Source: Tubulanus polymorphus (taxonomy: Eukaryota > Animalia > Nemertea). Taken from it: 64,000 nucleotides of DNA. The notes beneath the pieces are model-generated. The model was not told where the DNA came from and ran no database searches. It saw only the letters and a list, made by a program, of their open reading frames with translations. A program made the position numbers and the translations under genes. Below, piece after piece: positions 3,250 through 24,041 of this stretch. The stretch lies in assembly GCF_964204645.1 (NCBI RefSeq), contig NC_134026.1, forward strand, positions 12,956,050 to 13,020,049, given 5' to 3'. Numbering within the stretch: position 1 is the stretch's first letter; each line of letters starts with the position of its first letter.

Positions 3250-6200
3250 AAGAATCTCTCCGAAATGATATTTTCTCACCATTATAACGGATCCACAAAG
3301 CTGGGATATCAAATACGCCCTCAGCAAGTATAAAAGAAAGAAAGGATTATTCAACAAATTAATTTTTAGTTTTGATAAGATAAATCTAAGTATATCTATA
3401 TGTATATGATATTTGGGCTCTTCACACACCTAGACTCTTCTCAACACAATTATGCCTGTATTTGTTAATTATATCAGATTCTTGATGAAGGGTAGTACTA
3501 CGGAATGACATCTATGACGGTCTTTCCGGTTTAAAATCATCTTGATCGTCACCATCAAAGAAAATAATATCGTCGCCATCCCAACTCCACCAGACACCTT
3601 CACCACAGTTAAAAACATCAGAAAGTCGTTTAATATGGTGTTGCCACGAAGCTGCATCGATTTCGTGACAAGAAAATCTAGAGTACTTTGAGGGAGGGGG
3701 TATTAATCAATCTTGGTACGTACTTTATGTACAAAACTCAAATGAAAATATTCGTTGGTGTTTTATCGGCTTTTAGTACCGGGTATGTAAAATCAATAAA
3801 CAACAATACTTGCTTAATTCTTTTGTTGCGTCATTTATTTAATTATCGGAATTTTGTTCTAGACAAAATGTCGAGGTACCAGAAGTTTATTTCTGTTTTC
3901 GTGGAAACTAAAGGTTCTGAAAAACCTAGTAGGCCTAGTCTTCATGAAAACTTCAAACTTCCGTATATGTTGATGGAGCCCAGTGCCTGCATAATCTTTT
4001 TCGTAGGAATTCACCCTAACCCTAATTCAGATGAAAAATTAAGTTTTGTGACTCTATCATCCTACGAATAAAAATTATGCTGCCTGGCAACAGGAGAGGC
4101 TGAAACAGAAACAAACAAACAATTCCACTTGTGACTTGCAGTAGACTTCAACTGGGATTTCCCCAATACCGGGTACCGGTATCGATCTTTCACGCACTTG
4201 TTGGTACATCATTAATGAAATTAATGTTTTATTTGTGTTCTTTGCATCAATATAATTGGGGGGGGGGGGGTGGTCATGGGTGCGTCGGTACGTACCTAAG
4301 AGGGGGGTCAGTGAATTTGGTACAAAGGTGGTACAAGGGGGGAGGGGGGTCAGAAAAACGGGAGATTTTGAGGTACGTAATTTGCGAACGCTCCCTAAAG
4401 CATGTTTATAAGTTAGATTATAGAACTGTAGAATAAGTCTTGGCGAACGATTGTTTTCGGATATATACATACAACGGTTAATTAAAACAAGCGTTTTAAG
4501 TAATTGTTCGACATCAGTGGTAACAAGATCCTGTGAATATAAACGATAAATAACGCGATAAAGAGAAATAACGGCTTCTCTATAGTCACATCCACGATAC
4601 ACATTTTTGCCCGAAAATAATGCATTGTACGCAGCACAATATAATTTCTTAGTATTCTCAGGCAAGTGAAGTTGAAGCTCGAGTAAAACATTCTTAGAAT
4701 GTTCTTTACACGTATGAAGAGGTTCACAACCAAGATTTTCGTACGTATCCAAATTCATAGAAGATAGTGTTTCGCGGTGATTAAAAAATAATAAAGATGG
4801 CACACGCTGAATACCTGAAAGTTCGTCACGTAATAAATCGGTTAGATCGCTCTTGGTTGAGTTTTCATCATATTGAATATTACGGCGGTCTAGCTCAAGT
4901 TTTAAATTTTCCTTGGAAACATTCGAAAATGGATGTGTTATTCCGTTCGCTTGAAGTGAACTAAGCGGAGATATATTTACAGTGCGTATCCGTTCATCGG
5001 CCGATATATATTTAGCATTCAATGCAGCAGGTAAAAAAGTTAAATAATTTCGCATTCAATTTACAATCAACACACGGAAAATGTCCACCTTTTTGATGTC
5101 CAAATTCAAACTGTTGAGCCGGTGAATCTCCATGGAAAAAGCGTATGACATCACGAACTGGAGTCCCATCGGGAAGATTGAGCGTGATCGACATTTCTTT
5201 CAAACATTCCTGTCGAGCAGTGGTAAAAGCAAGCTGATCTTCCTCATTCGCACGACAACGACCAAATATGTATAACATTGGCTTTTCTACAACAGCTTGC
5301 ACATCAATAGATTTTCCGGTTTTAAGTAAATATTCCTCATCAGTTAGAAAAAATACAGGGTCATATATGGAAGAAACAGTATGTAATATATGTGAACGAT
5401 TCGCAATCGTACTTTCATCATGCCATATTATCAGGTGGCGAATCCTGAACGAATCAACGAGGAGTTTTTTAAGAGCATCACGGCTCTGCGCAATATCCAC
5501 ATCACATTTCAAAAGTAACAGTTTAGAAATAATTTCATCACGCGGAAGAGAGTCAAAATAAGCATCGGAATGATCTCGGATAAGTCCTAGTTCCGAAAAA
5601 TAAACTAATGAATCTTTCCGAAGATTAACGAGCGGAATTCGCCGACCGGTTAAAGTTAAAGTCTCTTCCACAATCTCGACTTCTTGAGAAATTGTCGTTT
5701 TCGTAAAGTCCCGTTCCGCAATTTTGTCACCGACAATCAGTTCTCCAGATTCCACTAGGGCATACATGTCTGATTTAATTGTTGATGAACATCGAGACAC
5801 CGGAATAGAAATTTCACCACCTTTTCCACGTCTCAGTCTACGCCGAGAATGGGGGCATTGTAAAAATGCTTCTTTTGGTAGGCCTTCAGATAGCAGAAAT
5901 TCTTTTACAATCTCGCCCTTATTCGAACTGAAAATGGGTGAATTGGTTTTCTTTGATGTTATCAGATACTGACGAGATAAAGCTGAACAGTTTATTTTTT
6001 TCTGACTATTCGCTAACTGGATGGCTTGTCTCAACATACTTTCACTATCAAATTCTAAGTTAACTATTGTTGGTATGTGTTTTTTAGAAGGAACACCTTC
6101 ATAACCTTCGAGCTTTCTTCGTTTTTGATACCGTGCATTAGCTTCAGCAGGAGTTTCAAAAAATGTAGCTTTTCTCTTCCTGTCGTAAGCAAGGAAGCTT

Positions 6201-6912
6201 TGATTTGATGCTAAATGAATTATAGTATCATTCTCTCGCATTTTCTGCTCTGAAGCTCTTTTACATTTCGAAAATATCTCACGTCGTTTTTTCTTTTTAG
6301 CTTATACCGTCTCTTTTTACATAAGTTTAATTGCGGAATGCGTACGAAATAATCACTAATCTCCTCTTCATATCTCTTCGAAAAAACAGTTTGGCATTTC
6401 TTATACAAGTCATACGCAGCTTTAGTCTTTTCGGTAATGCTTGCTTTCAGTGGTTTACGTCCACGCGTTGAAATGTTGAGTGACTCTGTTAACTCAGATA
6501 CAAATCTTCTGAAACCAGGGAAAAGCTGAAGCAATGAAGAATCTTCCGCACACGCAGCACATTTTTCGATTGAGTGTTTAGTCTTGTCCTCAGGTGAAAG
6601 TTTGCGAAAGTTTTCGGAGGAATAAAACAGCACAAACTTCTCTTTCAAATCCCGGTCGCTCCACTTCGCATTAAAATTATCGATTACGATTTGCGAATCG
6701 GCTTTGAAATTTATAAAATCCATTCGAAACGAAGCAGCAACATGAGTATCAGAAAACAAATCCGATATGATGTCATTGTATGCGGAATACCACTGTTGTA
6801 GGATTTCATTTTTCGCACTGACAGATTTTCGTCCACGTAGATTACCAATGCCGGAGCGCGCCAACTTAATAAAAGATAGTACATAGCCGCACTGAATCCG
6901 TGTAGTCTTCAT
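3250..6912 (-). pseudogene. Frameshifted DDE transposase-like gene (RAG1/Transib/Chapaev-like RNase H fold), interrupted by an insertion
   Basis: Overlapping ORFs 6220-6912, 5012-6241 and 4398-5055 read as one protein. Motifs: IIWHDES (D1), FFHGDSP (D2), GGHFPCVDC (CxxC), a SAP-like helix pair, and GCEPLH. Coding-like sequence resumes at ~3500-3660 (SWQHHIKRLSDVFNCGEGVWW). No TIRs identified. Confidence 0.55.
3690..4397. mobile_element. Non-autonomous DNA element or insertion inside the transposase gene
   Basis: The transposase reading frame breaks after YKHAL. The right end has G-runs and ends ACGTAATTTGCGAACGCTCCC-TA, a common invertebrate MITE-type terminus. The left boundary is approximate. 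Confidence 0.45.
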
Positions 6913-6934
6913 TGCAATAAATAAATGTACCGTA

Positions 6935-7311
6935 AGTAATAGGGATAATAGGCTTTCAAATCAAAGGTCGAACGGTCGAGTTCATTAAAAACAAAACATT
7001 AAAAGTAATTTAAAACTATAATATATTTTCATAACCGTGTGTATTTTATATTATAACTAAATATTTATTCTAAGATATCAATAATTTAAAAAGCATATAA
7101 TCAAATATATTTTAATAATAATTATTATTCTATTATTCAACTGAAATACACGGTTATGAAAATATATTATAGTTTTAAATTACTTTTAATATTTGTTATT
7201 AATGAACTCGACCATTCAACCTTTAACCTGAAAGCCTATTATCCCTATTACTCTTAAAATAATCATATAAATGAATAACATATAAATTGACAGATTATTA
7301 AATATAAAAGT
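6935..7311 (+). repeat. Left TIR of Polinton 1, containing an internal hairpin at 6935-7252
   Basis: Near-identical reverse complement of 23663-24041. Bases ~6935-7044 pair with ~7145-7252. Confidence 0.95.
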
Positions 7312-7342
7312 GTAAGCTCTTATAGAATAGATATATAAATAG

Positions 7343-7954
7343 TTATTTTATAAATTTATATTCATATGGAAATTGTAGTCTCAGTAATAATTTTGAACCT
7401 TTATTATTCTTTAATTTATTCATATATTCATCATGTAATTCAGTAGGTATAATTTGATTTTCTTCCAATGATTGTTGCATAGATTTTCTATCTTTGTTAT
7501 AAAATAAAACTAGAAATCTAATGTTTTCTCTAAAGTCTTTAACAATTGAATTATATTTTTGATTTAAAACCCATGTTGTTATCCCAAAATGTCTTCCAGA
7601 GAAAGCTAAATAACATAACTCACTTTCTCTCACTTTTGAATCATGTAAATTTGCGCAATCATCTATAATGAATAATGTATTTGATCCTTTATAAGTATCA
7701 ATTGCTATTTTTATACAATTATCTAAATTTTCTTTTACTGTTTTAGGATTTAATATAATAAACTTTTTTATCTTAACTATATCTCTATTATATGTTTTAT
7801 TCATTTCATAAGTAGGACAGAATAATATTATATTATCAAAATGATTCTTATAAATAGTTTCTAACAAGTCTAATATGAAATGTGTTTTACCACAATTGGT
7901 TACACCAGTAACTAACATATTATGCGGTTCAAATATAAATAAATCTTTATTCAT
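7343..7954 (-). CDS. A32/FtsK-like DNA packaging ATPase
   Basis: Walker A GVTNCGKT, Walker B LFIIDD, and SGRHFG and LNQ..IRENI-type motifs. Intact 203-aa ORF. Confidence 0.92.
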   Translation of the reverse strand: MNKDLFIFEPHNMLVTGVTNCGKTHFILDLLETIYKNHFDNIILFCPTYEMNKTYNRDIVKIKKFIILNPKTVKENLDNCIKIAIDTYKGSNTLFIIDDCANLHDSKVRESELCYLAFSGRHFGITTWVLNQKYNSIVKDFRENIRFLVLFYNKDRKSMQQSLEENQIIPTELHDEYMNKLKNNKGSKLLLRLQFPYEYKFIK

Positions 7955-9042
7955 TTATTCTTTTAATTTTACTAGATAAAATCCATTCATTAAATTTATC
8001 ATCATATCCTTTGTATTTCACCAAAGAATACTTTTTTCCTTTAAGAGTTTTTGTTTTCAATACTTTTTCTATTTTGTATTCTATTTCATCTGGGTTTGGT
8101 ACAAGTGATAATTTTTGTTCATAGAAATAACCTAATATTTCTTCATCTTTTATATCTTCTTATTTATAAACAAATGGTTTAGTTAATATTATCTTTTTAA
8201 TCTTGAATATTTCTTCTGTAAAATTAGGGGTATAACCTTTATAAAATGTTTTTCTATATTTAGATATTCTTACATGTTGCCCTATTTTAAATTTAGGTTC
8301 ACCGAAATCATGTGTAACAAACGCGCCATATAAATTATTCCAAACTATTTCTGAATTATCTTCTTTTCTAGCTTGTATAGGTTTCATATTTATAGAACTA
8401 TGTTTAGAATTATTATAACCTTTCACTAAATCATCTAACACATCGATATATTTATATGTTTCATTAGCAGTAAAATATTTCCACATTCTAGTTTTCAATG
8501 TTTTATTAAATCTTTCTATAATAGATGCTTTTTTATCTGAATGTGTTGAAAAATATTTTACATCGTTATCAGATAATAGTTTTTTAAAATGTTTGTTATA
8601 AAATTCCTTACCTTCATCAAATTGTATCTTATCTGGAATAGCTTCTTTAAATATAGATTTAAAAGCATTTGTAACATTTTCTATTCCAGTTGTATTTTTG
8701 ATTGGAATTGACCATGCGTATCTACTGAATATGTCTTTAAGATTCAGTATCCAAAAATATCCTTTGTTGTATTCCTCTAAGTTCTTCATTGTTAATTAAA
8801 TCTGCTTGCCATTGTTGATCAATATATGAAACCATAACTTTTCTTGTTAAATAAGTTTTATCCATTTTCTTGTGTATTTGATATGTTGGTTGATTTTGTA
8901 ACCATGATTTTAATTCACTATATTTTATATTACCATTTTCTTTATCAGATTTAATTTTATCCCATAATTCTGTAACACTAGAATATGATACTTCACTTTC
9001 TGGGTTATAATATAACTCTCTTAAATATTGTTCTTTTTTCAT
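7947..9042 (-). pseudogene. Retroviral-like (RVE) integrase with C-terminal chromodomain, broken reading frame
   Basis: LYYNP N-terminus, QWQADL (D), IQFDEGKEF (D), IIERFN (E) and YNNSKHSSI. A chromo-like tail YKIEKVLK...SLVKYKGYDDKFNEWI lies at ~7960-8080. Split into ORFs 8737-9042, 8160-8789 and the tail. Confidence 0.92.
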
Positions 9043-9056
9043 CTTATTTTAATCCA

Positions 9057-9422
9057 TTAATAATAATTTAGATTTAGTTTCAATGACTTTATGATTTGAC
9101 TTATTTTCTGGTATGATAGGTTTATTGTCATTGGAATCATCTTATCTTTATCATCAGATTTGAATTTTGATTTATATATTACACCGGATAATATAATAAC
9201 TGTTACTAATCCAATTGTAATATATAATTTATAATTACTTCCAGCATTAGAAGAATCAGATGGATTATTATTTGAATCAATATCAGATGAAGTCTGTGAT
9301 TCATTCATATCAGTTAATTTCTTTTTCTTAGCTTTTTTTAATTCTGAAGATCTTTTACCTAATTCTCTTGCCCATTTAATTTGTTTCTCGGATCTAGCCT
9401 TTTTCTTAACTCCATCACTCAT
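9057..9422 (-). CDS. Polinton hypothetical protein, basic N-terminus with one TM helix
   Basis: 121-aa ORF with RSEKQ..W..ELG motif and hydrophobic LYITIGLVTVIILSGVIY. Confidence 0.65.
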   Translation of the reverse strand: MSDGVKKKARSEKQIKWARELGKRSSELKKAKKKKLTDMNESQTSSDIDSNNNPSDSSNAGSNYKLYITIGLVTVIILSGVIYKSKFKSDDKDKMIPMTINLSYQKISQIIKSLKLNLNYY

Positions 9423-10017
9423 CTATTTTAGTTAATTTTTGTTCTGATTCATTTTCTGTTTCGACGTTTGGTTGTAGTACATCTGTTTCAATCTTACCTG
9501 ATTTACATTCCATAGGCTTGATGTTCGAAAATGTTATGACGCCAGTAGAAATTAATGTCATAACCGATCCTAATTGAAATGAAGCATAACCAACCCATTT
9601 TTGTAATTCAGTCATAACTAAGTAGTCATTTTTCAAATCACTATATAATTTATTTTCATCATCAATTGGTATTAACTGGTTACATAACTTAGAATAACAT
9701 TTGACAATACCATCTGAAATAGAATCATTTATTCTAGCTAATCTAGCTTCTTCATAAATCTTAAAATATTTTAAAACTTTATCTGGTTTCATAGAGTCTA
9801 GTTCTTGAAAAGTAATGATTCAATTAAAAAACTCATTAGTTTTTCCACCGGCAATCAATAGTTCTATATGATGCTTACAATATAAATAGTATTCATAATC
9901 TATATTGTTATTAACTTGAATAGAATTAGAAACAACTGTATCTTTATTATCACTTATACCCAAATCATCTAATGTTTTTTCAATATCAATACTATTCTTA
10001 CTCGATTTCTTTGTCAT
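9415..10017 (-). pseudogene. Polinton hypothetical protein split in two
   Basis: ORFs 9820-10017 (TAAATG start) and 9415-9792 are adjacent and probably one disrupted gene. Confidence 0.6.
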
Positions 10018-11192
10018 TTATATTAGAGAAATTTAATAAGAAAAATATTATAAGTATTATAAAATGATACTAGCTAGTTAAAGCTAAAGAATTCTAGTAT
10101 TGACTACTGATACTAGCTATTTCAATTTAAAGAATTTCTATTTGAATCTATTCAAAATATAAAGTATTCTCTTTTTGAAAAGAAAATATTAAAAATAAAA
10201 TTTTAAATAATTTTAAGTAATTTTAAATACTTTTTATTTAAATTAGGATTTAGATTAACTAGACTACTATTGTCTATCTATTAGGAGCAGTAATTATAAC
10301 TGTCCAGATAAGTCATTTCGGATTCTCGATAAATAAATCCTAAAACTGAAAATAAATTCAAAGAAACGACTGTTGGAAATACTATTTCATAAACACATAT
10401 ATATATTTTATTCTACAATCATTATCGATTTCCACATTCCAAGCCGCTCCACTCAGTCCCGGTAAGTTATGCGTGGAATGCAGGAATCAATAAAGTATAA
10501 TACAACATCTGTCACTGTGTGTCATTAACAACAGCTTAATGACGCAATTGAAATTCCGACAAACGTAATGCATTGGAAGCCTATACAGTATGGCTAAACT
10601 GCTACAGTCTCATGAGTTGAAATATCCATTATTTCTGATTTCACATCCATCTATCTTCACTTTCTTCATTCAATGGCCTTCATTTTGTTATCTAAAAGAT
10701 AAATATCTAGCGTAGAATAAAACTAACTTGAAGTTGTAGTTGTAAAATATAAGATAAGTTTTGCATGTTTAACGTTTCCCAACGCCTTAATAACAACAAA
10801 AACAGTACTTACATTTATAACTGTAAACTCCTAAAATTGTGTTTATAGAGAGAATATCCTATACGTTCCTATGCTTATGTGCTGCGCGTTTATAACTGCC
10901 AGTTATTCACTAGCTAAACACTGTCTGTGCAACATATGTTCCTTCCTTTGTAATATAATTGATTAATCCTTTTCAACTGAAATAGCACATTCGATCAATA
11001 TTCAAATGAGATACACCCTATTCAACTGAATATGAAATACGGCACAGATGTTTTTGTAAACAACCTAATACAATTACATACAGGCGGTTTGACATAGATC
11101 GAGAGTAACCGGTTTTCTAAGCGTTTAAGCTTCAACGTATTTTTCATTATGGGTTGAGTTCCATAATTCAACAAATGTCTTTGCTTTATCGT

Positions 11193-11783
11193 TTATAGTT
11201 GATCTAAATATAATTTCATATCTAGTTTGTTAGATTTAATTATATTTTCTTTCTTTTCAAGAGGCCTTAAATTTCTCCAGTTCCATATTAGCTTCTTATT
11301 ACAATCATCACTCATGTCAAATTTAGAAATCGGCAACACGTGATCAATATGAAAGTATTCACCATAATTATCTATATTCATTTTATCATCGAATTGATAT
11401 ATTATCCATGATTTGAGAAATTCATCTGAACAACCCAACAAATTAGATAATGTTTCTGAATGTGTTTCTTTGTTGAATAATTGTGTTAATCTAGATCTTA
11501 AGCATTGTTTCAATCTAAAATTAAGATCTGTTTGATATCTTTCTCTCATATATTCTGCCATATAATAATTATAATGTTCTATATTATCTTCTCGATATTG
11601 TTTGGTATATAGTTTAGTGCAGGTTTTACAGCAATATTGAAAACCATCTTTGCTAATCTCACGCTTACTAAATTCTGTTAAAGCTAATTTATCTAATTCA
11701 CATTTAGAACACTTCTTGTAATATATATTTATAACACCAGTGTTATTTGTAATATTTATAGTTTGTGGTTGTTCTGGTTCCAT
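11193..11783 (-). CDS. HNH endonuclease with N-terminal CxxC..CxxC zinc ribbon (large DNA virus/phage type)
   Basis: CSKC...KDG..CCKTC, LRSRL...LLGCS, NYGEYFHIDHVLPIS and NWRNLRPL..EN..K. Confidence 0.85.
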   Translation of the reverse strand: MEPEQPQTINITNNTGVINIYYKKCSKCELDKLALTEFSKREISKDGFQYCCKTCTKLYTKQYREDNIEHYNYYMAEYMRERYQTDLNFRLKQCLRSRLTQLFNKETHSETLSNLLGCSDEFLKSWIIYQFDDKMNIDNYGEYFHIDHVLPISKFDMSDDCNKKLIWNWRNLRPLEKKENIIKSNKLDMKLYLDQL

Positions 11784-11855
11784 TTATTATACATATTTTT
11801 TTACTAAATTGATTTTAGAAGTTATTCATTTATATGTTATTCATGAATACCTATG

Positions 11856-12245
11856 TATTAGATACCCTATTAGATACCCTATTAGATACCCTATTAGATA
11901 CCCTAATACCTGATACCCTATTAGATACCTTAAATACTTAAAACCCCCTTTTTTAAAATAAATATTATTTATACAATTTTCAACCAATTCATTCTTATTT
12001 TTTCAACTAATATATGAATAAGTTTGAAAATAATAAAGGTTATTTATTATTACTGAGGTTTCAATTTCCATATGAATATCAGTTTATAAAATAGGATATT
12101 TTATGTATTAGATTGTATTAGATTGTATTAGATATGTATTAGATTGTTTTAGATATGTATTAGATATGTATTAGATACGTATTAGATACCTTAAATACTT
12201 AAAACCCCCTTTTTTATTTACTATTATTTTATACAATTTTCAACC
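11856..12245. repeat. Two arrays of TATTAGA-core short tandem repeats, each followed by a duplicated ~55-bp unit
   Basis: (TATTAGATACCC)n at ~11856-11930 and (TATTAGATTG/TATTAGATATG)n at ~12105-12190. Both are followed by TTAAATACTTAAAACCCCCTTTTT...TATTATTTTATACAATTTTCAACC. Confidence 0.85.
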
Positions 12246-12252
12246 TTTATTA

Positions 12253-13170
12253 TTATTTGAGTGTTAGATAATTAATTTTTGAATCATTTTCAATATCATA
12301 CCCTAACAATTTTCCCAAATTCTCTACCGTATCTTCTTCTAATTCTTCATTATTTTTATACTTATTCTTCGTCCTTTTTGCCGCAACATCAATAGTTGTT
12401 TCATTGTTATGCTTACTCATCCTTTCTATCATATCATCAATAGTTTCTTCTTTATGTTTCATAGAATCTTTATTATCAATATGCTTATCTGTAACTATAT
12501 CACCATGTGGGTGCCGTATGGCGCCATTTTCATTATTATCTTTATTAGTGTTTGCTCCTAATATTTCATTTACAGTGTTTGATCCTAATATTTTATTAGC
12601 ATCGGTTAAATCTAATTCATCTTTATTAGGTGTTGCTAATAAAAAATCTTCATATAATTCTTTACCATTTACTTTTTTATTTGAAACAAATTTTGTAACA
12701 TATCTAAATGGGTGTTCTATAAATTCTCTTAAACCAACGCGTTCTATAACATTAGCAATATGTGAATTTGTATTCATATGTTTATTCCAATTTGATGGAG
12801 CGTTTGAAAATTCACCTTTACAATAATCACAATAATTTCTATTTTCACTAACATTTAATATTATTGCATTATCATATGTAGAAGGTATTACATTATTAGA
12901 TGTAGAAGTTATTACATTATTAGATGTAGTAGGTATTACATTATTAGATGTAGTAGGTATTACATTATTAGATGTAGTAGGTATTACATTACTTAAATTA
13001 TCAACTACACCACTTTTATTATTATCGATTTCTATTAGTTTAGTTTTATAAATTTTGAAAATAGGATCAAATATCAAAGCTATATTACAAGGTATTACAT
13101 AATATAAACCATCATTATTTTCATGTGTATCGATGTATGGAATATGTTTATATACTTTACCTCCTTCCAT
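12253..13170 (-). CDS. Polinton hypothetical protein with VIPTTSNN repeats and a U1/C2H2-like zinc finger
   Basis: 305-aa ORF with TAAATG start, 24-bp tandem repeats at ~12870-12990 and CDYC...HMNTNSH. Confidence 0.7.
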   Translation of the reverse strand: MEGGKVYKHIPYIDTHENNDGLYYVIPCNIALIFDPIFKIYKTKLIEIDNNKSGVVDNLSNVIPTTSNNVIPTTSNNVIPTTSNNVITSTSNNVIPSTYDNAIILNVSENRNYCDYCKGEFSNAPSNWNKHMNTNSHIANVIERVGLREFIEHPFRYVTKFVSNKKVNGKELYEDFLLATPNKDELDLTDANKILGSNTVNEILGANTNKDNNENGAIRHPHGDIVTDKHIDNKDSMKHKEETIDDMIERMSKHNNETTIDVAAKRTKNKYKNNEELEEDTVENLGKLLGYDIENDSKINYLTLK

Positions 13171-13202
13171 TTATTATATATATTTTTATTAAAGTTAAAA
13201 TT

Positions 13203-14446
13203 CGAATACATAACACTATCTAATTGTGTATTTACAATATTTAATTGCGCGTCAGATATAATATAAATGTGCATTTTGAAATTTAGGCTTCCTTTTTTCT
13301 TTGTCATGAATAATTGTATTCCATCTTTAGTGTTTTGTAATTTTTTTCCAGAACCATGTAATGAATTATCCTCTGTTGTTCTAAAATCTAACCATAATGC
13401 ATATTTATTACCGGTATAATAATCAATTTGATTAATGTTACAATTTTCAGATGATTTTACTTTTTCATTCATAAAATGTTTTCTAATTTCTGGCCACTGA
13501 TCTATCATTCTCGTTCCTTGACAAAATATTTTATTTGCTATTCCTTCGATAGTTATTTCTACTTTTGTTATTTCAGGATTATAATACTTATCAACCTGTA
13601 TTGCACCATTAGAATATGTTGCAATGGTAAAAAATATTAATATACCTTTAATAGATCTTCTTGGGAAGTTAATATTCTCATTAATTATTTCATCATTTGC
13701 ATAAATAGTTACAGTTTTAAATTTATCAATATAATCATATAATAATGAAAATCCTTGATTGTATTGAGTTTGAATTATACTTGTTTTCATCAGTTACTGT
13801 ATCATATTCTAAACATATATTTGATAATTTATAACTCATATCTTTAACAACGCTAGAATAATACAATTTCATTTACAGGAGCAAATGTTATCTCAAATAT
13901 AACATCTTCTTGAATTGCATATTTATATAAAGGCGCATTATTATTTATCAATTCAAAGTCTAATGGAATTTTATATTTGCTTCCATAAATCTTTTTTATC
14001 AAATTATCTGCGGTACGAGTTACTATTGCGTCATTAGCTCCTGATCTTAATTTACTTTGGTTTTCTGATTGGATGCCTTGAAATATCATATTATTTCTAT
14101 TTTCTTTAGTTAACCATAAATCTTTATAATGCATAAATAAATAATAATCATCTAATGAGAAAACTGTTTCTGGACCAATCTTTATTGTTAACTTTTTAAT
14201 CAAATATCTCCCAACATTATCAACAACATAATTATTATTATTACCGATTACTTTTATATCAGCTGATAAATAAATACTATTTGGAACGTAAAAAGTATTT
14301 TGTGTTAATCGAGGAATTCTAACATATAAAGTTTCATCAGGATTAATATTAGAAGGGTTATGAGTAATTATATGATGTGATCTTTCTGCTTTAATAGCAT
14401 TAGATATTCTAGAAATCTTAGAAGGACTTATATAACTCCCACTCAT
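13203..14446 (-). pseudogene. Major capsid protein (double jelly-roll/hexon-like), frameshifted
   Basis: ORFs 13853-14446 and 13095-13790 (ITHNPSNI...LYVRIPRL; RSIKGILIFF; YALWLDFRT..DNSLHGSG) fit the size and motifs of Polinton MCPs. The stop codon TAG seen in copy 2 is TCG here (13203-13205). Confidence 0.8.
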
Positions 14447-14469
14447 TTATTTAACAATAAAATTAATTA

Positions 14470-15915
14470 TTTATTTTTTATCATGGTTACTTGATATTTT
14501 TTGATATCATATTCACTAACCCAAAAATAATAGCACTTACAACTGTAATTAAAAATGAAATAATATGTTCAGCAGCAAACTTAAGAATATTCCCAGCAGA
14601 TTTCAATATAAAACCAACAATTGATGCAATAATTCCTGGTAAAGCTGCAGCAGATTTTTTAGATAGTTCTCATAAATATTTTGCTAATTTCTTTAAACCA
14701 TCCCTAACTTTATCTTGTATAGAATTATTATCTGGGGGTTTATCCGGTTTATTGGGAGTAGGAGTAGATTTTAAAGCATTTGATATAGCTAAACCAATTG
14801 TTGTGAATACTATAGTTACAGCTGTTAGAATTGAAAGAATTGTTATTTTTAAACTTAAATAATAATTTTATTCTATCTTTCAATGATATTTTAGAATTTG
14901 GTTTTATTAGATATCTTTTAAAAACATCTTTTAATCTATCAATATTATAATCATATGATTTTAATAATAATTTAATTTCTTCTTTTTGTAATTCTATGTT
15001 ATATTCTAAATCATCTTTTTCTTTTTCTAAACGTAATTCTTTTTGCCTATATTCTATTTCATCAATAACTTTATTATCTCTATCTAATTTTAATTGTTCT
15101 ATTTCTTTATTTTTATCAGTTAATTATTTTTCTAAAAATCTAATTTTAAAATCTCTTATTTCTTTTTCATGCGCAATTTTATCAGATGCAAGTCTTATAC
15201 TAATAATTTCTCTAATTGCTTTATCAGAAAATATATCTAAATCTTCTAATTCTTGATCTGTTGCATCAAGTAATCCCTTCGGTAAAAGTTTTTCAGTTTG
15301 AACTTCTCTTGAATTAGGTCTACTAGTTTCTGGTTCTAAATTATTATCGATTGTTTCAAATAATTTATTAATTCTTTGTTTAAATACTCTTTCATTTTTA
15401 ATAATTTCTTCTTGTGTTACATCTTCTATTTCATTATTATTCTTATTCTTTTAATTCTAGATAGTACTTAGTCAGACTTAAAGCAAAGTTGATTCTGCTA
15501 ATATTTTGTTTTGTTTTTTATAAGAGATATCAATATAATAATCACCTTTCAAACGATAATAAGATTCACCATCTAAAAACTTTAATTCTTGTACTAAAAG
15601 TCTGGCGCCTCTGGCATTTATATTATATCCAGATTTTTCAAATATAGGTTTGAAATTATGAATATATTCATTATATTCTAAATTTTCCTTTAATAAACCT
15701 GGATTTTCATTTTCAATAGGTATTCTAGATCTAGTTCTTCTATCAAATTCATCTGTTGATGGGCCTTTAGAACCACTATCTGCTAAATTAGAATTATATG
15801 CTGATTCATCATCATTATCAATATTAGTTTCTGCATCATTATAATCATCATCAATATATCCCTCATTATTATTTCCCATTTCTCCCATTTCATAATCTTC
15901 TCCACCTTCTGCCAT
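14470..15915 (-). pseudogene. Long acidic/coiled-coil protein with hydrophobic-amphipathic C-terminus, disrupted
   Basis: Starts MAEGGED (15915). The C-terminal frame reads ITILSILTAVTIVFTTIGLAI...AAALPGIIASIVGFILK. Homologous termini occur in copy 2. Confidence 0.65.
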
Positions 15916-15929
15916 TTACATAATACAAA

Positions 15930-17318
15930 AATTAAAATTTAAAATATAATATTCCTCCGATTACAATTCCTATACAAGTTATAGCTAATTTAGCATTTTT
16001 CATGGGATTTATTATCATCATTTAGTTTAATTATATCATGTTGAATAATATCAGTTTCTTTATTTTCTGATGTATTGTAATCTTTTATTTTAGAATCATT
16101 ATTTAATTTTATTAGTTTTAGTTTCTGTTGATTGAATGTGTTTTTTATTTTTTTCACTTTCCATTAATTTTGGAGCAGTGATAATCTTTTTATTCATATC
16201 ATTCAATCCAAATGAATTATTTATTGTTGCAGTATTAATTAGATTATTATAACCAATTATATTTCCCATCTTTAGTACTAAATCATTAGAAATAATGAAT
16301 AGATTAGGGCCTATACAATAATTTAATCTAATATGTGATTTATCTAAATAATTTTGATATCTTACAATGTTTTCTGGAATCGATCTATTTTTATCATTAT
16401 GAATTGAATCTTCAAATAATACTTTAAATTGTTTTTCTGTATCGAATGATGTATTCAAATTTCCAATTATCGGTGATCTTGTTTCAACTTGCGCACCTAG
16501 AATACATATCAAATAAGTTCTAATAGATTGATTTATTCTTTCTATACCTGATTTAGTAAAACCTTCACTATTTTCTAAAATAAAATAAACCCAACCATTA
16601 TTGTTTTCTTGTTTTAAATGATCATAAAATTTCGGTAATTTATTGAAATTTAATGTTTCTAAATCCTTTGTTTCTATTTTACCATAACCTAATTTATTAT
16701 TATAGATATTATAAAAACTATTAGATGGTATGGGAAGTGCACAATATTCTGCAATCTTTTTAGGGCAAGGAAGTGATCTTATTGTTCCAATTTTTGTTCT
16801 AAAATCAGAATTATTTATATCTATATTAAATTCATTACAAATTTTATAAAACTTTGATACATTAATATTATTATCTAATTCTTTAAAATATCTAGATCCT
16901 GGTAAAGCGCACTCTAATTCGTTTAATATTATTCTGATTTGAAAGTATGTATGAAATCTAAATAAACTTTGAATTAATTTATATTTAGAATTATTCAAAT
17001 GATCATTCCAACTTTCATTCCACATCCTGTTGTTGCACAATAAACAGCAAAATTTAATTGGTTCTGCCAATACTTCATATTAGATTTTAATAACCATTGT
17101 TTTTCATCTTTCAATTTTTTAAAATTAATTAAATATACATGAAATATATTTTCCATCTTTGCATTAAAATTATTAGTTTCAGTAACATAAATTTCTAAAT
17201 TAGTTAATGAATCTAAAACTTCATTTCTATATGTAATATCTTTATTAAAATCTATTGCTGGAATATTATATTTAATTGATTTATTATATTGGGAAGCTTT
17301 TGGAAAACTATCTACCAT
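15930..17318 (-). pseudogene. Conserved Polinton protein (WQNQLNFAVYCATTGCG family), frameshifted
   Basis: ORFs 16995-17318 and 16099-17070 join. Homologue at ~40770-42070. Probable C-terminal TM anchor near 15950-16000. Confidence 0.7.
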
Positions 17319-17334
17319 TTATATAATTAAAAAA

Positions 17335-17769
17335 TTAATAATTTATTAACTCTTTTAATAATTTATCTTGTTCTTCAACTGTTATATGGCCATTTAAACT
17401 CATTATATAATCTAGTGTATTCTTTAATTTATTAATTTCTTTTATATTAGTTTTAATTTTTTCTTTATTACTTTTTATATTTAATTTTGAACTTATACCG
17501 GTTAAAACACTTGAACTTAATCCTAATACGCCAATTGATATAGCTAAAGGTGTTAATGGACTGAATATTGCTAGAAATGTTATTACAGAACTAATTGTAA
17601 CCGAACCACTTATAATCAAATAATATATAATTTTACTTTTTAGATATTTTTTCTTTTTAACTTTTAAGTCACTTTCAAATTCTAATATTTGTTTTTCTAA
17701 ATATATTTTTAATTTAGTTTTATTTATATCATGAGGAATAATATCAATACTATCAACTTTATCTTCCAT
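17335..17769 (-). CDS. Two-TM coiled-coil membrane protein (possible adintovirus membrane-active protein)
   Basis: 144-aa ORF with a hydrophobic hairpin IIYYLIISGSV...LGLSSSVLTGIS flanked by basic coiled coils. A decayed homologue lies at ~42083-42520. Confidence 0.7.
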   Translation of the reverse strand: MEDKVDSIDIIPHDINKTKLKIYLEKQILEFESDLKVKKKKYLKSKIIYYLIISGSVTISSVITFLAIFSPLTPLAISIGVLGLSSSVLTGISSKLNIKSNKEKIKTNIKEINKLKNTLDYIMSLNGHITVEEQDKLLKELINY

Positions 17770-17788
17770 TTATTTAGAAAAAAAATTA

Positions 17789-18209
17789 CTAATAAGTAAA
17801 TTTATATGCTACAAATATAACAATAACTGTTCCACCTAAAATCCAAATTATTTCATATTTCTGTTGTTCTTTACTTGGGGTATAATAATCTGATAATTTA
17901 GGTTTGTATAGATGTAATTTTTCTTTATTGGTTACCGCGTTATATAAACTCATTGCATCATCGACTGATTGAAAATCTATGTGAAATCTTCTGATCATAT
18001 AATTCTTTATTGATGTAAACCATATAGTTTTGTCTCTTTTCTCTATATTCTTCTGCAGCTTTATTATATTTTTCTAATGCTAAGTTATGTCTTCTTTGTT
18101 CTCCTAATGAACTATTTTTATCAATATGTTTAAATAAATATCCACCACCAGTAAATGCTAAAGCGTTAACAATTGCCGATCCTATAATAGTTATAATTGC
18201 AGAAGCCAT
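17789..18209 (-). pseudogene. Small hydrophobic Polinton protein (MASAIITIIGSAIVNALAF), frameshifted
   Basis: ORFs 17958-18209 and 17789-17998 together equal the single 134-aa ORF at 42561-42965. Confidence 0.8.
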
Positions 18210-18233
18210 TTATTTAGAAAAATAATTACGCAT

Positions 18234-18455
18234 TTATATGGGAGGAATATATTTTTGTTTTTCCAAATAATCAATAGTTAAATTAGATAAAGTAATTGCT
18301 AATGCTAATTTTAAAATATCATTTATATCAAATCTATCAACATTAACACTTCCCATTTTGAATACTTTTTTTAATACCATTGAATAACCAACAGTTCCAA
18401 CTGATAGTAATGCTCCATTATATAATCCAGTTATTATCCACTTATTATCACTCAT
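18234..18455 (-). CDS. Small two-helix hydrophobic Polinton protein
   Basis: 73 aa with TAAATG start; conserved in copy 2 (43023-43211). Confidence 0.75.
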   Translation of the reverse strand: MSDNKWIITGLYNGALLSVGTVGYSMVLKKVFKMGSVNVDRFDINDILKLALAITLSNLTIDYLEKQKYIPPI

Positions 18456-18797
18456 TTATTTATCAAAAAAATTAATATCATCAAAATATTTAGTTATCTT
18501 AGTGATGATTAATTCAACATTTATTTCATTACTAGTTTTATGATTATCATATATTTTGGTTAATATGTTTTTAATATCATCAAAAATTCCATCTTCATTT
18601 AATTCATAATATTCTAAAGGCGATTTAATTAAATCAATTACTTTTTCTATATTATAATTTTCTTTATCAATCATTGATGCATTGTTAAATGATTTACTTT
18701 TTATATCAGTAATTACATCATTTAGTTTAATTCTCATTTCTTTACCATGTTTAAAATCAAACCCAAAACATATACTCGGGCCTACAGTTATATTCAT
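18456..18797 (-). CDS. Polinton hypothetical protein
   Basis: 113 aa; its stop abuts the next start (TAA-ATG). A decayed homologue lies at ~43212-43550. Confidence 0.7.
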   Translation of the reverse strand: MNITVGPSICFGFDFKHGKEMRIKLNDVITDIKSKSFNNASMIDKENYNIEKVIDLIKSPLEYYELNEDGIFDDIKNILTKIYDNHKTSNEINVELIITKITKYFDDINFFDK

Positions 18798-18816
18798 TTA
18801 TATAGTGAAAAAAAAA

Positions 18817-19575
18817 TTACTCTCTACATCTTATAACTAATTCATATATCACAGGAAAGTTATTCAAATCAATTAAATATCCATTATGATTTCTAATTTC
18901 TAATCTAAAATTATTAAAACGAGGAATGCATGGTTTGAAATCACATTCTGTTAAATTATAATTTATTTGCGTTCCAAATTCTTTAACATTCTTCAATGGT
19001 AAAATGTTTAATAAACCAGAATTACAAGTTATATCTTTAGTTGCTTCGAATGTTTTTGTAGGATCGATTAAATTGCAATAAATATAAAAGTGTGTAAAAG
19101 GTATTAAGTTTGGTGTAGCATCAGCATTGCGTATCCTTACATCTGGGGTTATTCCTAAAATTTTAGCTAAAGGTTTTTTAACTAGAAATTGATGTTGATC
19201 TTCATTACCTAATTTTATTCTTATTTTATCGGAGCTATCACTTTTAATCAGTCTTAATCCAAATCCAGCAGATGCACCCATTTTCAACCGAGCTCTTCTA
19301 TTAATTTCCTGCGCTAATGTATCTAAATTATATAATCCTGGTTTAAGATAAAGATGAAACCATTTACTTTTATTTCTATCATGAATTAAAAATACTCTAT
19401 GTTCAATAGTTTTATCCGATACATTGTAAAAAGAATTACATAAACTTATATTAACTAATTTTAAATCAACACAATTCTTAAATTCTCTATCTAATTGTAC
19501 TAGTAAATTATGAGATTTATAATTTGTAAGTCTTCTAGAATCTACAAATATTCTGTATTCTTTTAATTCTACCAT
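18817..19575 (-). CDS. Minor capsid protein (penton, single jelly roll)
   Basis: IFVDSR..NY...L.REFKN...LKLV; NSFYNV; PGLYN; FYIYCNLID; LEIRNHNG.LIDLN..P...EL match the Polinton/virophage penton pattern. Confidence 0.85.
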   Translation of the reverse strand: MVELKEYRIFVDSRRLTNYKSHNLLVQLDREFKNCVDLKLVNISLCNSFYNVSDKTIEHRVFLIHDRNKSKWFHLYLKPGLYNLDTLAQEINRRARLKMGASAGFGLRLIKSDSSDKIRIKLGNEDQHQFLVKKPLAKILGITPDVRIRNADATPNLIPFTHFYIYCNLIDPTKTFEATKDITCNSGLLNILPLKNVKEFGTQINYNLTECDFKPCIPRFNNFRLEIRNHNGYLIDLNNFPVIYELVIRCRE

Positions 19576-19592
19576 TTATTTTACATATTTTC

Positions 19593-19946
19593 TTATTCGA
19601 AATCTATTTCATGGTGCCCTTTTTCATTCTTACCTTTGTATACGAAATAGAAATCTCCAGAACATAATTTTTCTAGATCTTCACTTGATAATCTATGAAA
19701 TCTATCAGGTAAATATGTTCTGGATTTATATGTATTTCCTTTTAATCCTTCATATTCTAAGTGTATAACTAATTTATCTCCATAGTTATTAGTAACTGTA
19801 TCAATATTTGTAATTAGATATTTCTTATGGATTGTTAATTCTGTTAACTTTTTGAATTTATAATCTACAGATTTTACATTGGTAGTATCTTTTATTCTAT
19901 CTAGAAATGATTTGTTTTTCTCACTGTGCGCTTGTTTACTCTCCAT
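19593..19946 (-). CDS. Small beta-rich hypothetical protein (possible OB-fold ssDNA-binding protein)
   Basis: 117 aa, FKKLTEL..KKYLI...YGDKLVI.L...YLPDRF; lies directly downstream of PolB. The fold is inferred. Confidence 0.6.
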   Translation of the reverse strand: MESKQAHSEKNKSFLDRIKDTTNVKSVDYKFKKLTELTIHKKYLITNIDTVTNNYGDKLVIHLEYEGLKGNTYKSRTYLPDRFHRLSSEDLEKLCSGDFYFVYKGKNEKGHHEIDFE

Positions 19947-19975
19947 TTTAATAACATATTTTTATTAAAATTTGA

Positions 19976-22900
19976 TTAACACATTAGAATTCTTTTCATT
20001 ATCTCGTTCTCTTTTGTTTCTTCACTTTTAAATTTTAAGTATTCATCTAAATTACAACCATAAGCAACTGTATGAATTCCATCATCCAGAATATATCTTT
20101 TATCATCAAATGGGTTTGGACTTATCTTTTCAATTTCTTGAATAAATGTTTCATGATCTTCAGATCTTAAACATCTCATTTTATGTTTTCTAACTTCTTC
20201 ATTGAATATACAATTGATGTAATCTTTGAAATGAATATTCTTTTCTACTACACTTTTGGTTATTCCTTTTAACTTTTTAGCTTCATGTTCATTCATGTTT
20301 CATTCTGTAAAACTTCAGTTAATTCAAATACTCCATAAGGTTGTGGTTTCATCATTGCCCAACCATACAAATTATTTGCATCTATATATAATAACTTATA
20401 TCCAGGGTTATCATTTACATTGAAATATCTATCACCTAATACACCCGAAACTCCTCCTCTTATAGATTTTTCGAATAATAGTAATTGATCTATATTTGTT
20501 AACAAATCCATTTTTATATCTGTAAATTTTAATCCACAATCCCATGTTAATCCTGGTGATGAATAACAATGACATGGATCAATATTTAAATATTTTAGGT
20601 TTACATCTCTAAACCTTTCGAATATATCAGTTAATAATAATACATCTGATTTTAGATATAAATCTACTAATTGCCCATGATTTTCTATTTTGAAATGATT
20701 CCAAATATTCAATGTTCTATTATATACTTCATCTTTAACATATTCATTTTTTTAATTCATCATAGAATTGTTCTTTTAATAATTCAGTTATGTTAAAATC
20801 ATTATGATTTTTATAGAAAGAATATGGAATTGCTCCTTTATATCTCATTAATTGAAAATCATCATTATTTGGGTAGTGTTGCTTTAATATTTTTAATTCA
20901 TCATCAACTAATGATTTTGATAAGTTATCTAATGAACTATTTAAAAATCTATATGAATCTATAAATCTTAGACATCCAAATTGGAATGATATATAATTCT
21001 CAGATGTTTTAGCTAACATTCTAAATTTATAAGTTGGTATTTTATCTTTTGATCTATTTGAATTTAATCTTTCTATTTCATTATTGATTTCTTCTATTTT
21101 ATGGCATAACTGTTTGATGAATAAATGTGCATCATATCCTGATAGATTATGAAATATAACTGGTACAAAGTTAATTTTCTTAGCTTGTAAATTACAATTC
21201 TCATGCGCTGCGCCTGTAAACTTTCCATTCAAATGATCATGGTCTCTTACTTTTTTATCTTTATAATTAAATATCTTTTCACAATAATAACATTTATCTG
21301 CAAACTCAAATGCTTCTTTATCTTCTTCTGTCATTATAATTTCTATATTTGTATTCAATAATTTACTAAATCTTATTTCATATTCAATTAATAAGTCACA
21401 AAAATGATTGATAACATTTTCATTTCTATAATGATAATATTCACTTTCAATTAGTTCTGGATAATCAGATTTAATATATAACCCGAAAGCTGCAGCTGAT
21501 TGATGAATCTTTTTAATTGTATTTGTTATTGGTGGTTCATCTGAAAAATCATTTTCATTAGAATTTAATTTCTTTCTTTTATAATATATTTCTTTTCTAT
21601 CTTGATCAGTTAGTTCTTTATTTAATGATTCAAAATCTCCATATATTACAAATGGTACTTTATTTTTGTAATCATATTTTTTGAATTCTAATATTTTATC
21701 TTTTTCATTTGGTAAAACTAATTAACAATAATCATGATTTTCACATAATTGTTTATGATTTAATAATGTACTTTCATTACTGAATTTATGTAAACATTTT
21801 CTACAAAGATATATTTTATTATGGTGATCACTTTCTGTTCTAAAGAATAAATCTATTTGTTTAAAACTCATTCGCTGGGGATATATTTCTTCATTATCCA
21901 TTCAATCTGGGGGAATTAATTTTTTCTTCATATTTCAATGTAAAGGTCGATACATTTCCAGTGTAGAGACCCTCCTAAAACCAATATCTGTTATGAAGCT
22001 AATAGGTATCTCTACCAGAAAATGTTAGTTATAAAAAGTTTGGACCTACGGGTGCAAGGTAGACCCCAAAACCTGAGGTCAAGTTGAGGTCACGCAACCA
22101 AAAAAGTCGCCGACAACCAGTACATACTGCCTGTGTGTGTAGAGTATATACAATCGCTTGTGAGCTCTCTATAGAGCATGCTGACTCAGTGTAAGCAGCC
22201 AGACTCGACTAGTTTGCCATCTATCGGGGGTAATAGGAACCGTCACTTGAGGCGTGGCCACGACCCAGTTTCTTTGTTTACGCTGTCACGTGAGGCGTGA
22301 CGACGCCAACTGAATTCCACATATAATGATTCTTATAATATAGTATATCTATAACATCATTTGAATCATAATCTTTTGATAGGTATAAAGGTTCTAATGT
22401 ATAATATTTTATATTGTTACCTTTGTTAAATCAAATACATTTATCTTTATATTATTATCTCTTTCTATTTTTGGGATGTTTTTAATTCTAACAGGATACT
22501 TATCTATCTTATAATTATTTTCAAATGGTTTATAATGAGTTAATCTACAAATATTATAAGTTGCAGGATGTAAGCAACTTATTATAGCCCATAGAAAACA
22601 TTTATCATCTTCATTTTGTACATTTATAACAGCATTAGTTTTAAATGGTAGTTTAATATAACTCGATGCTTCAATATCTGGTTCTTTATAATATGATACA
22701 TTATTTTCATCAATTGGTTTTGATTTAGTTAACTTATTATATTTTGTGTTATAAACATGTAAAGTCATAAATATTATTTCATCAAATATTAAACCAGATC
22801 CTTCAAAATATTTCTCTTCTATTTTAGTTTTTACTTCATTATAACATTTATCTAATTTATCATCTATATGTTGTTTAGATAAAATATGTTGTGAATGAGA

Positions 22901-23516: not shown

Positions 23517-23662
23517 TTTAATACTAAATTCTTTATTAAAATTGATTTTAGAAGTTCAATGATTTATATCATGTATTATTTCAATCACACTTTACTAACA
23601 CTTTTAATGTTTAAAATCTAACTCACACAAATATGAATATTGAAATAATGTTGTAAATATAT

Positions 23663-24041
23663 ACTTTTATATTGAATAATCTGTCAATTTATATGTTATT
23701 CATTTATATGATTATTTTAAGAGTAATAGGGATAATAGGCTTTCAGGTTAAAGGTTGAATGGTCGAGTTCATTAATAACAAATATTAAAAGTAATTTAAA
23801 ACTATAATATATTTTCATAACCGTGTGTATTTCAGTTGAATAATAGAATAATTATTATTATCAAAATATATTTGATTATATGCTTTTTAAATTATTGATA
23901 TCTTAGAATAAATATTTAGTTATAATATAAAATACACACGGTTATGAAAATATATTATAGTTTTAAATTACTTTTAATGTTTTGTTTTTAATGAACTCGA
24001 CCGTTCGACCTTTGATTTGAAAGCCTATTATCCCTATTACT
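23663..24041 (-). repeat. Right TIR of Polinton 1, containing an internal hairpin at 23722-24041
   Basis: Reverse complement of 6935-7311. Confidence 0.95.

Follow-up and report, generated by a model that had tools for sequence, protein, structure and literature searches.

Genes of a Polinton-like endogenous virus in Tubulanus polymorphus share a start signal resembling a poxvirus late promoter

How the genes of animal Maverick-Polintons are transcribed is a question that a pox-type promoter on nearly every gene of such an element would address, and it is raised by a 64,000-nucleotide stretch of Tubulanus polymorphus DNA (the window). The element concerned (copy 1, positions 6935-24041, genes on the minus strand) is a decayed Polinton-like virus of 17.1 kb with ~24% GC (about 76% AT), several of whose genes are broken. 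It is flanked by a 6-bp target-site duplication (6929-6934 and 24042-24047) and bounded by left (6935-7314) and right (23660-24041) terminal inverted repeats that match at 98% over 382 columns; the first 318 nt of the left repeat form a fold-back, as do 320 nt of the right. The minus-strand genes begin with an intact A32-like packaging ATPase (7343-7957; Pox_A32 E 3e-12; TAAATG at 7952-7957) and a fragmented rve integrase with a chromodomain (7958-9042, comprising 8737-9042, 8160-8789 and a tail; rve E 1e-7), both domains of which are found in the integrase of the related locus L004. They are followed by a small gene (9057-9422), a split gene (9415-10020, pieces 9820-10017 and 9415-9792; TAAATG at 10015-10020), a likely HNH endonuclease (11193-11786; weak HNH match, E 0.0055, in the L002 homolog; TAAATG at 11781-11786), a gene with 24-nt repeats (12253-13173; TAAATG at 13168-13173) and the major capsid protein in two pieces (13095-14449; TAAATG at 14444-14449). 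Beyond these lie a broken long gene (14487-15918, lower end placed by eye; about 485 aa in L004; TAAATG at 15913-15918), a conserved 442-aa gene that is split in the window (16099-17321; TAAATG at 17316-17321), four small genes (17335-18800; starts 17769, 18209, 18455 and 18797, each with TAAATG and an upstream T-run), a gene whose predicted product we take to be, as is likely, a minor capsid protein (18817-19578; TAAATG at 19573-19578), a 117-aa gene with a TAAAATG start and a T 12 nt ahead of the ATG (19593-19950), and a broken gene encoding a zinc finger, a family-B DNA polymerase and an endonuclease-VII-like domain (19976-23520; TAAAATG start at 23516). No function is assigned to the small gene at 9057-9422, the split gene at 9415-10020, the repeat-containing gene, the long gene or the 117-aa gene.

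Several of these identities draw on relatives of the element. A structure model of the intact capsid relative P0001 (pLDDT 72.7) matches the PBCV-1, iridovirus and mavirus capsids with E values down to 4e-14, from which the capsid is predicted to be a double jelly roll; the mavirus capsid ranks below that of PBCV-1 and is only 9-10% identical to the model. Pfam-type matches among 39 capsid relatives are limited to Capsid_N (11/39) and Hint (once). The polymerase gives a DNA_pol_B_2 match on one piece that falls below the cut-off (E 0.0014) and aligns with E 3e-49 to a 1253-aa protein of L037, a second Polinton lineage; a word within 20293-20511 resembles what we take to be polymerase motif A. 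The 442-aa protein has no fold match (best Z 4.5) and no match in an atlas search, which is not proof of novelty. With a family-B polymerase, an integrase, terminal inverted repeats with a 6-bp duplication, and a capsid plus A32 ATPase, copy 1 is a Polinton/Maverick-type element, and its family is inserted at many sites. The element contains no frame of the size of an RNA polymerase gene and no DFDGD motif. An adenovirus-like cysteine protease was sought by Pfam and by tblastn with the protease-like domains of L037 and L144 and yielded no match, although a divergent one could escape these searches.

A first-pass annotation had reported TAAATG at almost all gene starts, often behind a T-run. 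The twelve minus-strand starts it named (7954, 10017, 11783, 13170, 14446, 15915, 17318, 17769, 18209, 18455, 18797 and 19575) all read so, as do the cargo starts 61040 and 61673, and the T-run is real, T making up 59-93% at -9 to -12. 'Almost all' depends on how starts are counted: the twelve stand among 25 ORFs of at least 60 aa, and become 12 of 16 true starts once nine internal pieces of split genes are set aside. Shuffling the upstream 30 nt of each start while retaining the ORF-calling rule, the AT-matched comparison proposed with the annotation, gave an expectation of 1.62 (P 1e-9). The hexamer itself is only mildly enriched window-wide (137 versus 109 ± 10), so the signal is positional. 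Moreover, a matrix trained on relatives alone placed 13 true starts of the element at the top of all 2461 ATGs in the window. The start signal is thus confirmed. The four exceptions among the 16 starts are 23516 and 19946 (both TAAAATG), 9422 and 9042; the L004 homolog of the 117-aa gene starts with TAAATG, as do the L002, L004 and L005 homologs of the gene at 9422 and the L002 counterpart of the integrase.

The signal recurs in the other elements of the window. Copy 2 (35940-48620, minus strand, ends approximate) is decayed and interrupted, with about 87% identity in the structural block, and keeps TAAATG at nine starts (36673, 37931, 40742, 42070, 42520, 42965, 43211, 44319 and 48603), the last of which is the polymerase start that reads TAAAATG in copy 1. 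The copy-2 equivalents mentioned in the annotation are borne out at these nine; the start at 43553 no longer has its ATG, and that at 44599 has TAAAATG instead. A lone 138-nt terminal-hairpin-like element (45466-45603) sits inside the copy 2 polymerase. Mini element A (53636-56020) has related terminal sequence, a 6-bp target duplication, zinc-finger stubs and three cargo genes, which start with TAAATG at 55452 and 54833 and without it at 54574. Mini element B (60610-64000), largely palindromic and continuing past the window edge, carries TAAATG at its cargo starts 61040, 61673, 63709 and 63486. The minis are non-autonomous terminal-repeat elements whose ends and start signal are common with the full element.

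Ten related metagenomic loci carry TAAATG at 46/53 starts (28/32, 9/11 in loci of 36-44% GC, and 9/10 in the three subsets), giving 58/69 with the window. Nine of 21 loci (L003, L009, L013, L014, L017 and L018-L021) were dropped as near-duplicates or decayed ahead of counting, and homologs share ancestry, so that counts over relatives are not independent. The capsids of motif-bearing loci form one clade in a quick tree (SH-aLRT 95), outside which the motif-less L015 falls. Five other AT-rich Polinton-like loci (GC 25-32%) have TAAATG at only 2/38 starts, and 48 AT-rich viral loci chosen for having the motif have it at 52/363. The motif also occurs farther afield: L037 has it at 7/7 starts (one being the selected match) with the upstream T in 3/6, the giant-virus bin L094 at 6/9 with the upstream T in three, and L044, a non-pox giant-virus fragment with an NCLDV capsid, TBP and ribonucleotide reductase, at 10/22 with the upstream T in three. 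Searches of a viral contig collection with the capsid, ATPase and 442-aa queries returned no relatives, and the integrase returned L037 alone. The exact 19-nt promoter pattern matched two unrelated phage-like contigs, and the best four of at least 120 loci retrieved with a divergent-promoter pattern contained no recognizable poxvirus.

The context of the start codons is distinctive in two respects. T occupies position -3 in 59/69 starts and G position +4 in 45/69, whereas other Polinton-like loci have a purine at -3 in 30/38; this is the opposite of the Kozak bias that had been offered as an alternative. Farther upstream, a T lies nine bases ahead of TAAAT in 54/58 starts, compared with 29 expected from local T content, and the excess is significant in each subset taken separately (window, GC-rich, distant). 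The same T is present at 30% of 96 internal TAAATG sites and at 32% of the 111 TAAATG starts taken from other viruses. It sits inside an A/T-run, and the tenth base ahead of TAAAT is T in 72%. In the vaccinia late consensus, likewise, TAAATG spans the start codon and the tenth nucleotide upstream is a conserved T amid other Ts (PMC11980589, excerpts). As the element T is the ninth base before TAAAT and the tenth before the first A, whereas the vaccinia T is literally the tenth before TAAAT, the two-part architecture appears to lie within one base of the published consensus, with a one-base doubt in the numbering. The -3 to -1 triplet is TAA in 58 of the 69 starts and TAG once, and TAA is the stop codon of the upstream frame in only 3/58. 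Three possible causes of TAAATG are accordingly rejected: AT bias by the shuffled null, Kozak bias by the T at -3, and stop-start coupling by its occurrence in just 3/58. The AT background fails additionally in that the motif persists in relatives of 36-44% GC.

Other poxvirus signals fared less well. TTTTTNT, which the annotation had given as the early terminator, is unsupported as a separate signal: it is depleted in coding DNA (7 versus 22 in close relatives), the same holds for simple T5 runs and for the antisense sequence, and of the 15 sites on the sense strand of copy 1 about half fall in promoter T-runs, making a terminator inseparable from general run avoidance. With one mismatch allowed, the early-promoter consensus occurs 21 times in copy 1 and never immediately ahead of a listed start. 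A two-class late/intermediate model was rejected on spacing, as the T is retained at the A-rich starts, whose A-run lies at -10 to -15, whereas the published vaccinia intermediate core lies 15-19 nt upstream and has no conserved T near -10 (PMC11980589, PMC5294985 and PMC12722222, excerpts).

We favor, with moderate confidence, the reading that TAAATG and the upstream T form a poxvirus-type late promoter read by the polymerase of a co-infecting cytoplasmic large DNA virus. The element would then be an integrating, virophage-like agent that depends on a helper. Borrowed transcription machinery is likely because of the TAAATG starts and because no RNA polymerase gene is detectable in the element. 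The helper RNA polymerase would initiate in the AAA of TAAAT, and slippage there would add a 5' poly(A) leader, replacing the unfavorable T at -3 with A; such leaders arise from TAAAT-type initiators (PMC6211774 and PMC12722222, excerpts). Replication, integration and structural genes are all on one promoter class, as expected if naked DNA enters a virus factory in which post-replicative factors are the only ones available to it, and integrated copies would remain silent until helper infection. Precedents exist in the mavirus/EMALE promoters, which match the helper's late promoter (PMC10945749, excerpts), and in the Polinton-like viruses (PLVs) that occur in entomopoxvirus occlusion bodies (PMC11296320, excerpts). 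The sequence-level checks named in the annotation as able to refute its idea did not do so. Its virophage-like interpretation is thus borne out in its motif and in an architecture near that of vaccinia late promoters, while helper dependence is what we infer and 'poxvirus' is too narrow, because TAAATG-rich starts also occur in the non-pox fragment L044. On balance, the helper is more probably pox-like, though it may be another nucleocytovirus with a similar initiator.

The strongest competing account, which we consider unlikely, is a lineage-specific minimal core promoter used by nuclear host Pol II, perhaps with an element factor such as the zinc finger or the 442-aa protein; mRNAs would be nearly leaderless, the element autonomous and the pox likeness convergent. 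It accommodates integration into nuclear DNA at many sites, the replication of some PLVs without a helper (PMC10945749 and bioRxiv 10.64898/2026.06.19.733378, excerpts), and the TAAATG-rich L044, which has TBP and shows no RNA polymerase beta subunit in a 39%-complete record, a fragment in which absence is unproven. The prevalent T at -3 is nonetheless contrary to scanning preference, unlike the purine of other PLVs, and the conserved T is ~10 nt from the presumed start, compared with about 24-30 for a TATA box. Six head-to-head gene pairs (two of them near-duplicates) have TAAATG on both sides, 19-72 nt apart, and the closest genes, separated by 19-30 nt, are too near each other to accommodate a pair of ordinary Pol II core promoters plus leaders.

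These divergent pairs bear equally on the improbable proposal that the motif is a translation signal, in which an in-frame stop right ahead of the ATG and a U-rich enhancer would support re-initiation on read-through or polycistronic mRNAs. Tight gene packing, three exact stop-start joints and a 7-codon frame that connects a pair of TAAATG sites ahead of 18209 in copy 1 (the first site being kept in copy 2) fit this idea, but 55/58 starts are uncoupled from the upstream frame, the motif stands at the first genes of head-to-head pairs, and the near-exclusive use of TAA is at odds with a role that any stop would serve. Slightly more improbable still are relic promoters, left from an ancestor that relied on a pox-like helper in a family that now spreads in the genome as a helper-free transposon. 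In its favor, both window copies are decayed and non-autonomous minis exist; against it, open-frame relatives have retained the motif even though their capsids are 51-75% identical, their genes are reordered and their GC spans 20-44%, which requires long-term selection, and integrase expression would still require these promoters. An artefact of AT-rich DNA and of opening each ORF at the first ATG that follows a stop is barely credible: a TAA before ATG does open an ORF automatically in an AT-rich element, but the null with the same rule and local composition gave 1.6 rather than 12, equally AT-rich PLVs lack the motif and GC-richer relatives have it.

The preferred reading, of a helper-read late promoter, can be set against the closest known systems. 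Mavirus and the EMALEs of Cafeteria, whose helper is CroV, are likewise integrating small dsDNA viruses with an rve integrase, polymerase B and genes under a common promoter motif ascribed to a large helper (PMC10945749, excerpts); here, by contrast, the host genome is of animal type, the motif is pox-type TAAATG rather than the CroV motif TCTA, no protease is detected, and the helper is a predicted one. The entomopoxvirus PLVs (AHEV_PLV1/2, CBEV_PLV1 and Ca_PLV1), compared by their description, are Polinton-like, proposed poxvirus hyperparasites in animals; they are known from co-purification and all four encode a cysteine protease, which is undetected here (PMC11296320, excerpts). Poxvirus-associated PLVs are therefore already published, as far as the available main text goes without promoter analysis: the words 'promoter', 'motif' and 'TAAAT' do not appear in it. 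Vaccinia late and intermediate promoters share TAAAT(G) over the start codon, a T-rich core shortly upstream, one conserved T and the TAAAAT variant (PMC11980589, PMC5294985 and PMC12722222, excerpts), and differ in that the element T is one base nearer by literal count, its A-rich class lacks the intermediate spacing and its starts have no early promoters. The yeast cytoplasmic elements pGKL1/2 are linear with a TAAAN initiator that yields slippage poly(A) leaders; they encode both an RNA polymerase and a capping enzyme and use an upstream ATNTGA, whereas the present element encodes neither enzyme and has a capsid and integrase (PMC6211774, excerpts). Finally, animal Maverick/Polintons (Polintoviricetes) and Aquintovirus-related PLVs have in common with it polymerase B, rve integrase, ATPase, double-jelly-roll capsid, terminal repeats and a 6-bp duplication, and differ in the protease, none being found here (bioRxiv 10.64898/2026.06.19.733378, excerpts). 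No promoter motif is mentioned in the available part of that preprint or in PMC8502044.

The virions of animal Maverick-Polintons have never been seen (bioRxiv 10.64898/2026.06.19.733378, excerpts). Tentatively, and as a possibility short of an expectation, the clade may be a virophage whose helper is a pox-like virus, as yet undescribed, that infects marine invertebrates. The promoters would then record the helper's transcription system, integrated copies would be activated by infection alone, and the minis would exploit both element and helper as second-order parasites. If so, start-context motifs could sort animal Polintons by helper, the silence of seemingly intact copies would be explained, virophage-type defence would extend to animals, and a pox-like virus yet to be found would be predicted in the host.

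The element under study (copy 1), a decayed Polinton-like virus, spans 17.1 kb at positions 6935-24041, has a GC content of ~24% as compared to 35-40% in its surroundings, and is bounded by ~380-nt terminal repeats (98% identical) and a 6-bp target duplication. Its minus strand encodes a broken zinc finger and family-B polymerase, a major capsid protein (in two pieces), an rve integrase (in pieces), an A32 ATPase, a likely HNH nuclease and small genes, as well as what we take to be the minor capsid protein. An intact relative of the capsid protein is predicted to form a double jelly roll. No RNA-polymerase-sized frame or catalytic motif was detected in the element, nor was a protease detected using Pfam or tblastn from the protease-like domains of the viral loci L037 and L144, searches that a divergent one could escape. 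An inverted fragment of the end of the ATPase gene is found within the element at 11969-12093, and a conserved 442-aa gene (16099-17318; 2996-4324 in the related metagenomic locus L004) has 1321 homologs and a protein model with a pLDDT of 81, yet no fold match. Copy 1 is inserted immediately upstream of a group of three unidentified ORFs on the minus strand (4075-6912), one with a weak endonuclease-VII dimerisation match.

The first-pass annotation claimed that almost all genes start at TAAATG, a hexamer overlying the start codon that was likened to the vaccinia late-promoter initiator. It is indeed present at 12/12 of the starts listed, and the equivalents in the related copy 2 and the cargo genes of the small elements agree with copy 1; "almost all" amounts to 12/25 ORFs of at least 60 aa, or 12/16 once the nine that are inner pieces of split genes are set aside. 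A null that preserves both local composition and the first-ATG-after-stop rule yields 1.62 expected occurrences (P 1e-9), and the 12 genes are mutually unrelated. TAAAATG, the form of the vaccinia G8R initiator described in PMC12722222, occurs at two further starts of the 16. At 18210-18236, a TAAATG contains the stop codon of gene 18455 and begins a frame of seven codons that closes in the TAA of the next gene; this hexamer is kept in copy 2 (42987-42992).

A capsid alignment identified 21 metagenomic loci, of which 12 were counted and nine left out as near-duplicates or decayed, with starts taken by a fixed rule (ORFs of at least 70 aa, not nested, closed upstream). TAAATG occupies 28/32 starts in the four closest loci, 9/11 in three loci of 36-44% GC, 9/10 in three more distant loci and 0/8 in the sister pair L015/L016, homologous genes across loci not being independent. 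Motif-bearing capsids form a single clade with L015 outside (SH-aLRT 95; quick tree, 50 rows). Gene order and strand vary among these loci, and six head-to-head gene pairs, 19-72 nt apart, carry TAAATG on both sides. In the family as a whole (the element and its motif-bearing relatives), the hexamer is found at 58/69 starts and T at Kozak position -3 in 59/69, whereas five other AT-rich Polinton-like loci have it at 2/38 starts and a purine at -3 in 30/38. In 48 AT-rich viral loci chosen for containing TAAATG, it occurs at 52/363 other starts, and TAA is the stop of an upstream frame at only 3/58 TAAATG starts. AT bias, Kozak bias and stop-start coupling therefore all fail to explain the motif and are rejected as its cause.

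A second conserved T lies upstream. When the starts are aligned on TAAAT, 54/58 have T at position -9 (window, 11/12; GC-rich loci, 8/9; distant loci, 9/9), as compared to 30% of 96 internal TAAATG sites and 32% of 111 starts of other viruses; positions -9 to -12 are T-rich, and A precedes this run at -14/-15. A matrix with 46 starts from the relatives as its training set ranked 13 true element starts on top among 2461 window ATGs, with A-rich element starts scoring low (ranks 135-174). The vaccinia late consensus in PMC11980589 comprises TAAATG over the start codon and a conserved T, among other Ts, at the 10th nucleotide upstream, and the late core is placed ~6 nt before the initiator (PMC12722222, PMC5294985). 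Counting upstream, the family T is the 9th base from the motif and the 10th from its first A, the base taken as start site in PMC6211774, and the match is uncertain by one base. In fish and insect poxviruses, too, TAAATG is a mark of late genes (PMC4542343, PMC3061580); other initiators are TATA in ASFV and TCTA in CroV. In the motif-less Polinton-like loci L015, L016 and L144-L146, TATA-rich words adjoin the starts, qualitatively resembling the ASFV late initiator.

Several results argue against a pox-specific reading. TAAATG is present at 10/22 starts (upstream T in 3) of L044, a giant-virus fragment encoding an NCLDV capsid, TBP and ribonucleotide reductase, at 6/9 starts (upstream T in 3) of the giant-virus bin L094, and at 7/7 starts (one being the selecting match; upstream T in 3/6) of L037. 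The latter, a 9034-nt IMG/VR contig of 38% GC, represents a second Polinton lineage with a 48% identical integrase fused to a protease-like domain and a different ATPase; several of its starts have TAAG just upstream of TAAATG, recalling the baculovirus late motif. In addition, the A-rich subclass of starts lacks intermediate-promoter spacing, and TTTTTNT, cited initially as the poxvirus early terminator, is not supported as a terminator here: it is depleted in coding DNA, but plain T5 and the antisense form are as well.

The start signal is real, conserved and promoter-like. By sequence and analogy, the element likely depends on a helper, and we give somewhat better than even chances to transcription of its genes by the helper polymerase, about half of that weight being carried by a true pox-like helper. 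Mavirus-like elements are described as reactivating only with the late motif of their helper (PMC10945749, bioRxiv 2025.10.09.676808). The helper RNA polymerase would initiate in the AAA of TAAAT and then slip, as reported at such initiators in vaccinia and yeast virus-like elements (PMC6211774, PMC12722222). The templated T at -3 would then never enter the message, which would explain why an anti-Kozak T is kept at nearly every gene. Replication and structural genes would share one promoter class, as a virophage needs. A promoter read by host Pol II in these integrated copies is unlikely, though the best placed of the alternatives. A signal acting in translation is improbable, and relic promoters are marginally more so. 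An artefact is scarcely credible.

Raw DNA reads from the same species cover the element ~10-50x more deeply than its flank, and 1062 reads run out of it at 6935 into dissimilar flanks (agreement 0.34); it thus belongs to a family present in multiple copies at many insertion sites. Over 5000-10150, the element is several hundred times deeper than the flank in contig runs X1 and X2 and tens of times deeper in raw-read run X6, contig depths not being copy numbers. Copy 2 (roughly 35940-48620) is decayed and ~87% identical to copy 1. Between the two copies lie a BEL/Pao retrotransposon (25192-31163) with 99% identical direct repeats (at 25192 and at 31004) and Helitron-like Pif1-helicase/endonuclease pieces (32818-35610). 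Two small elements, mini A (53636-56020, with a 6-bp duplication) and mini B (60610 onwards), have terminal sequence related to the full element and the same start signal; of their three cargo genes, one has a homolog in the full-size L004. No capsid or polymerase match was found in either, and they are non-autonomous. At 10340-11483 of L004, a deoxynucleoside kinase gene is head-to-head with a homolog of cargo gene 61040, with TAAATG on both. The ends of copy 1 (6935-7252, 23722-24041; ~320 nt) and of the minis (53636-53757, 55899-56020, 60610-60729; ~120 nt) are fold-backs, 81-89% paired, which recall the hairpin ends of cytoplasmic DNA viruses; speculatively, the endonuclease-VII-like domain of the element polymerase might resolve them.

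Association of Polinton-like viruses with poxviruses has been published (PMC11296320); "promoter", "motif" and "TAAAT" are absent from the main text of that paper, as is "promoter" from the accessible text of PMC8502044, bioRxiv 2026.06.19.733378 and the egovirus preprint 2024.03.23.586382. Among titles and abstracts, with subscription journals outside the search, no report of a pox-type start signal in a polinton or adintovirus was found. A helper-associated lifestyle was known before; evidence for it at the level of promoters, in a Polinton clade endogenous to animals, appears to be new.
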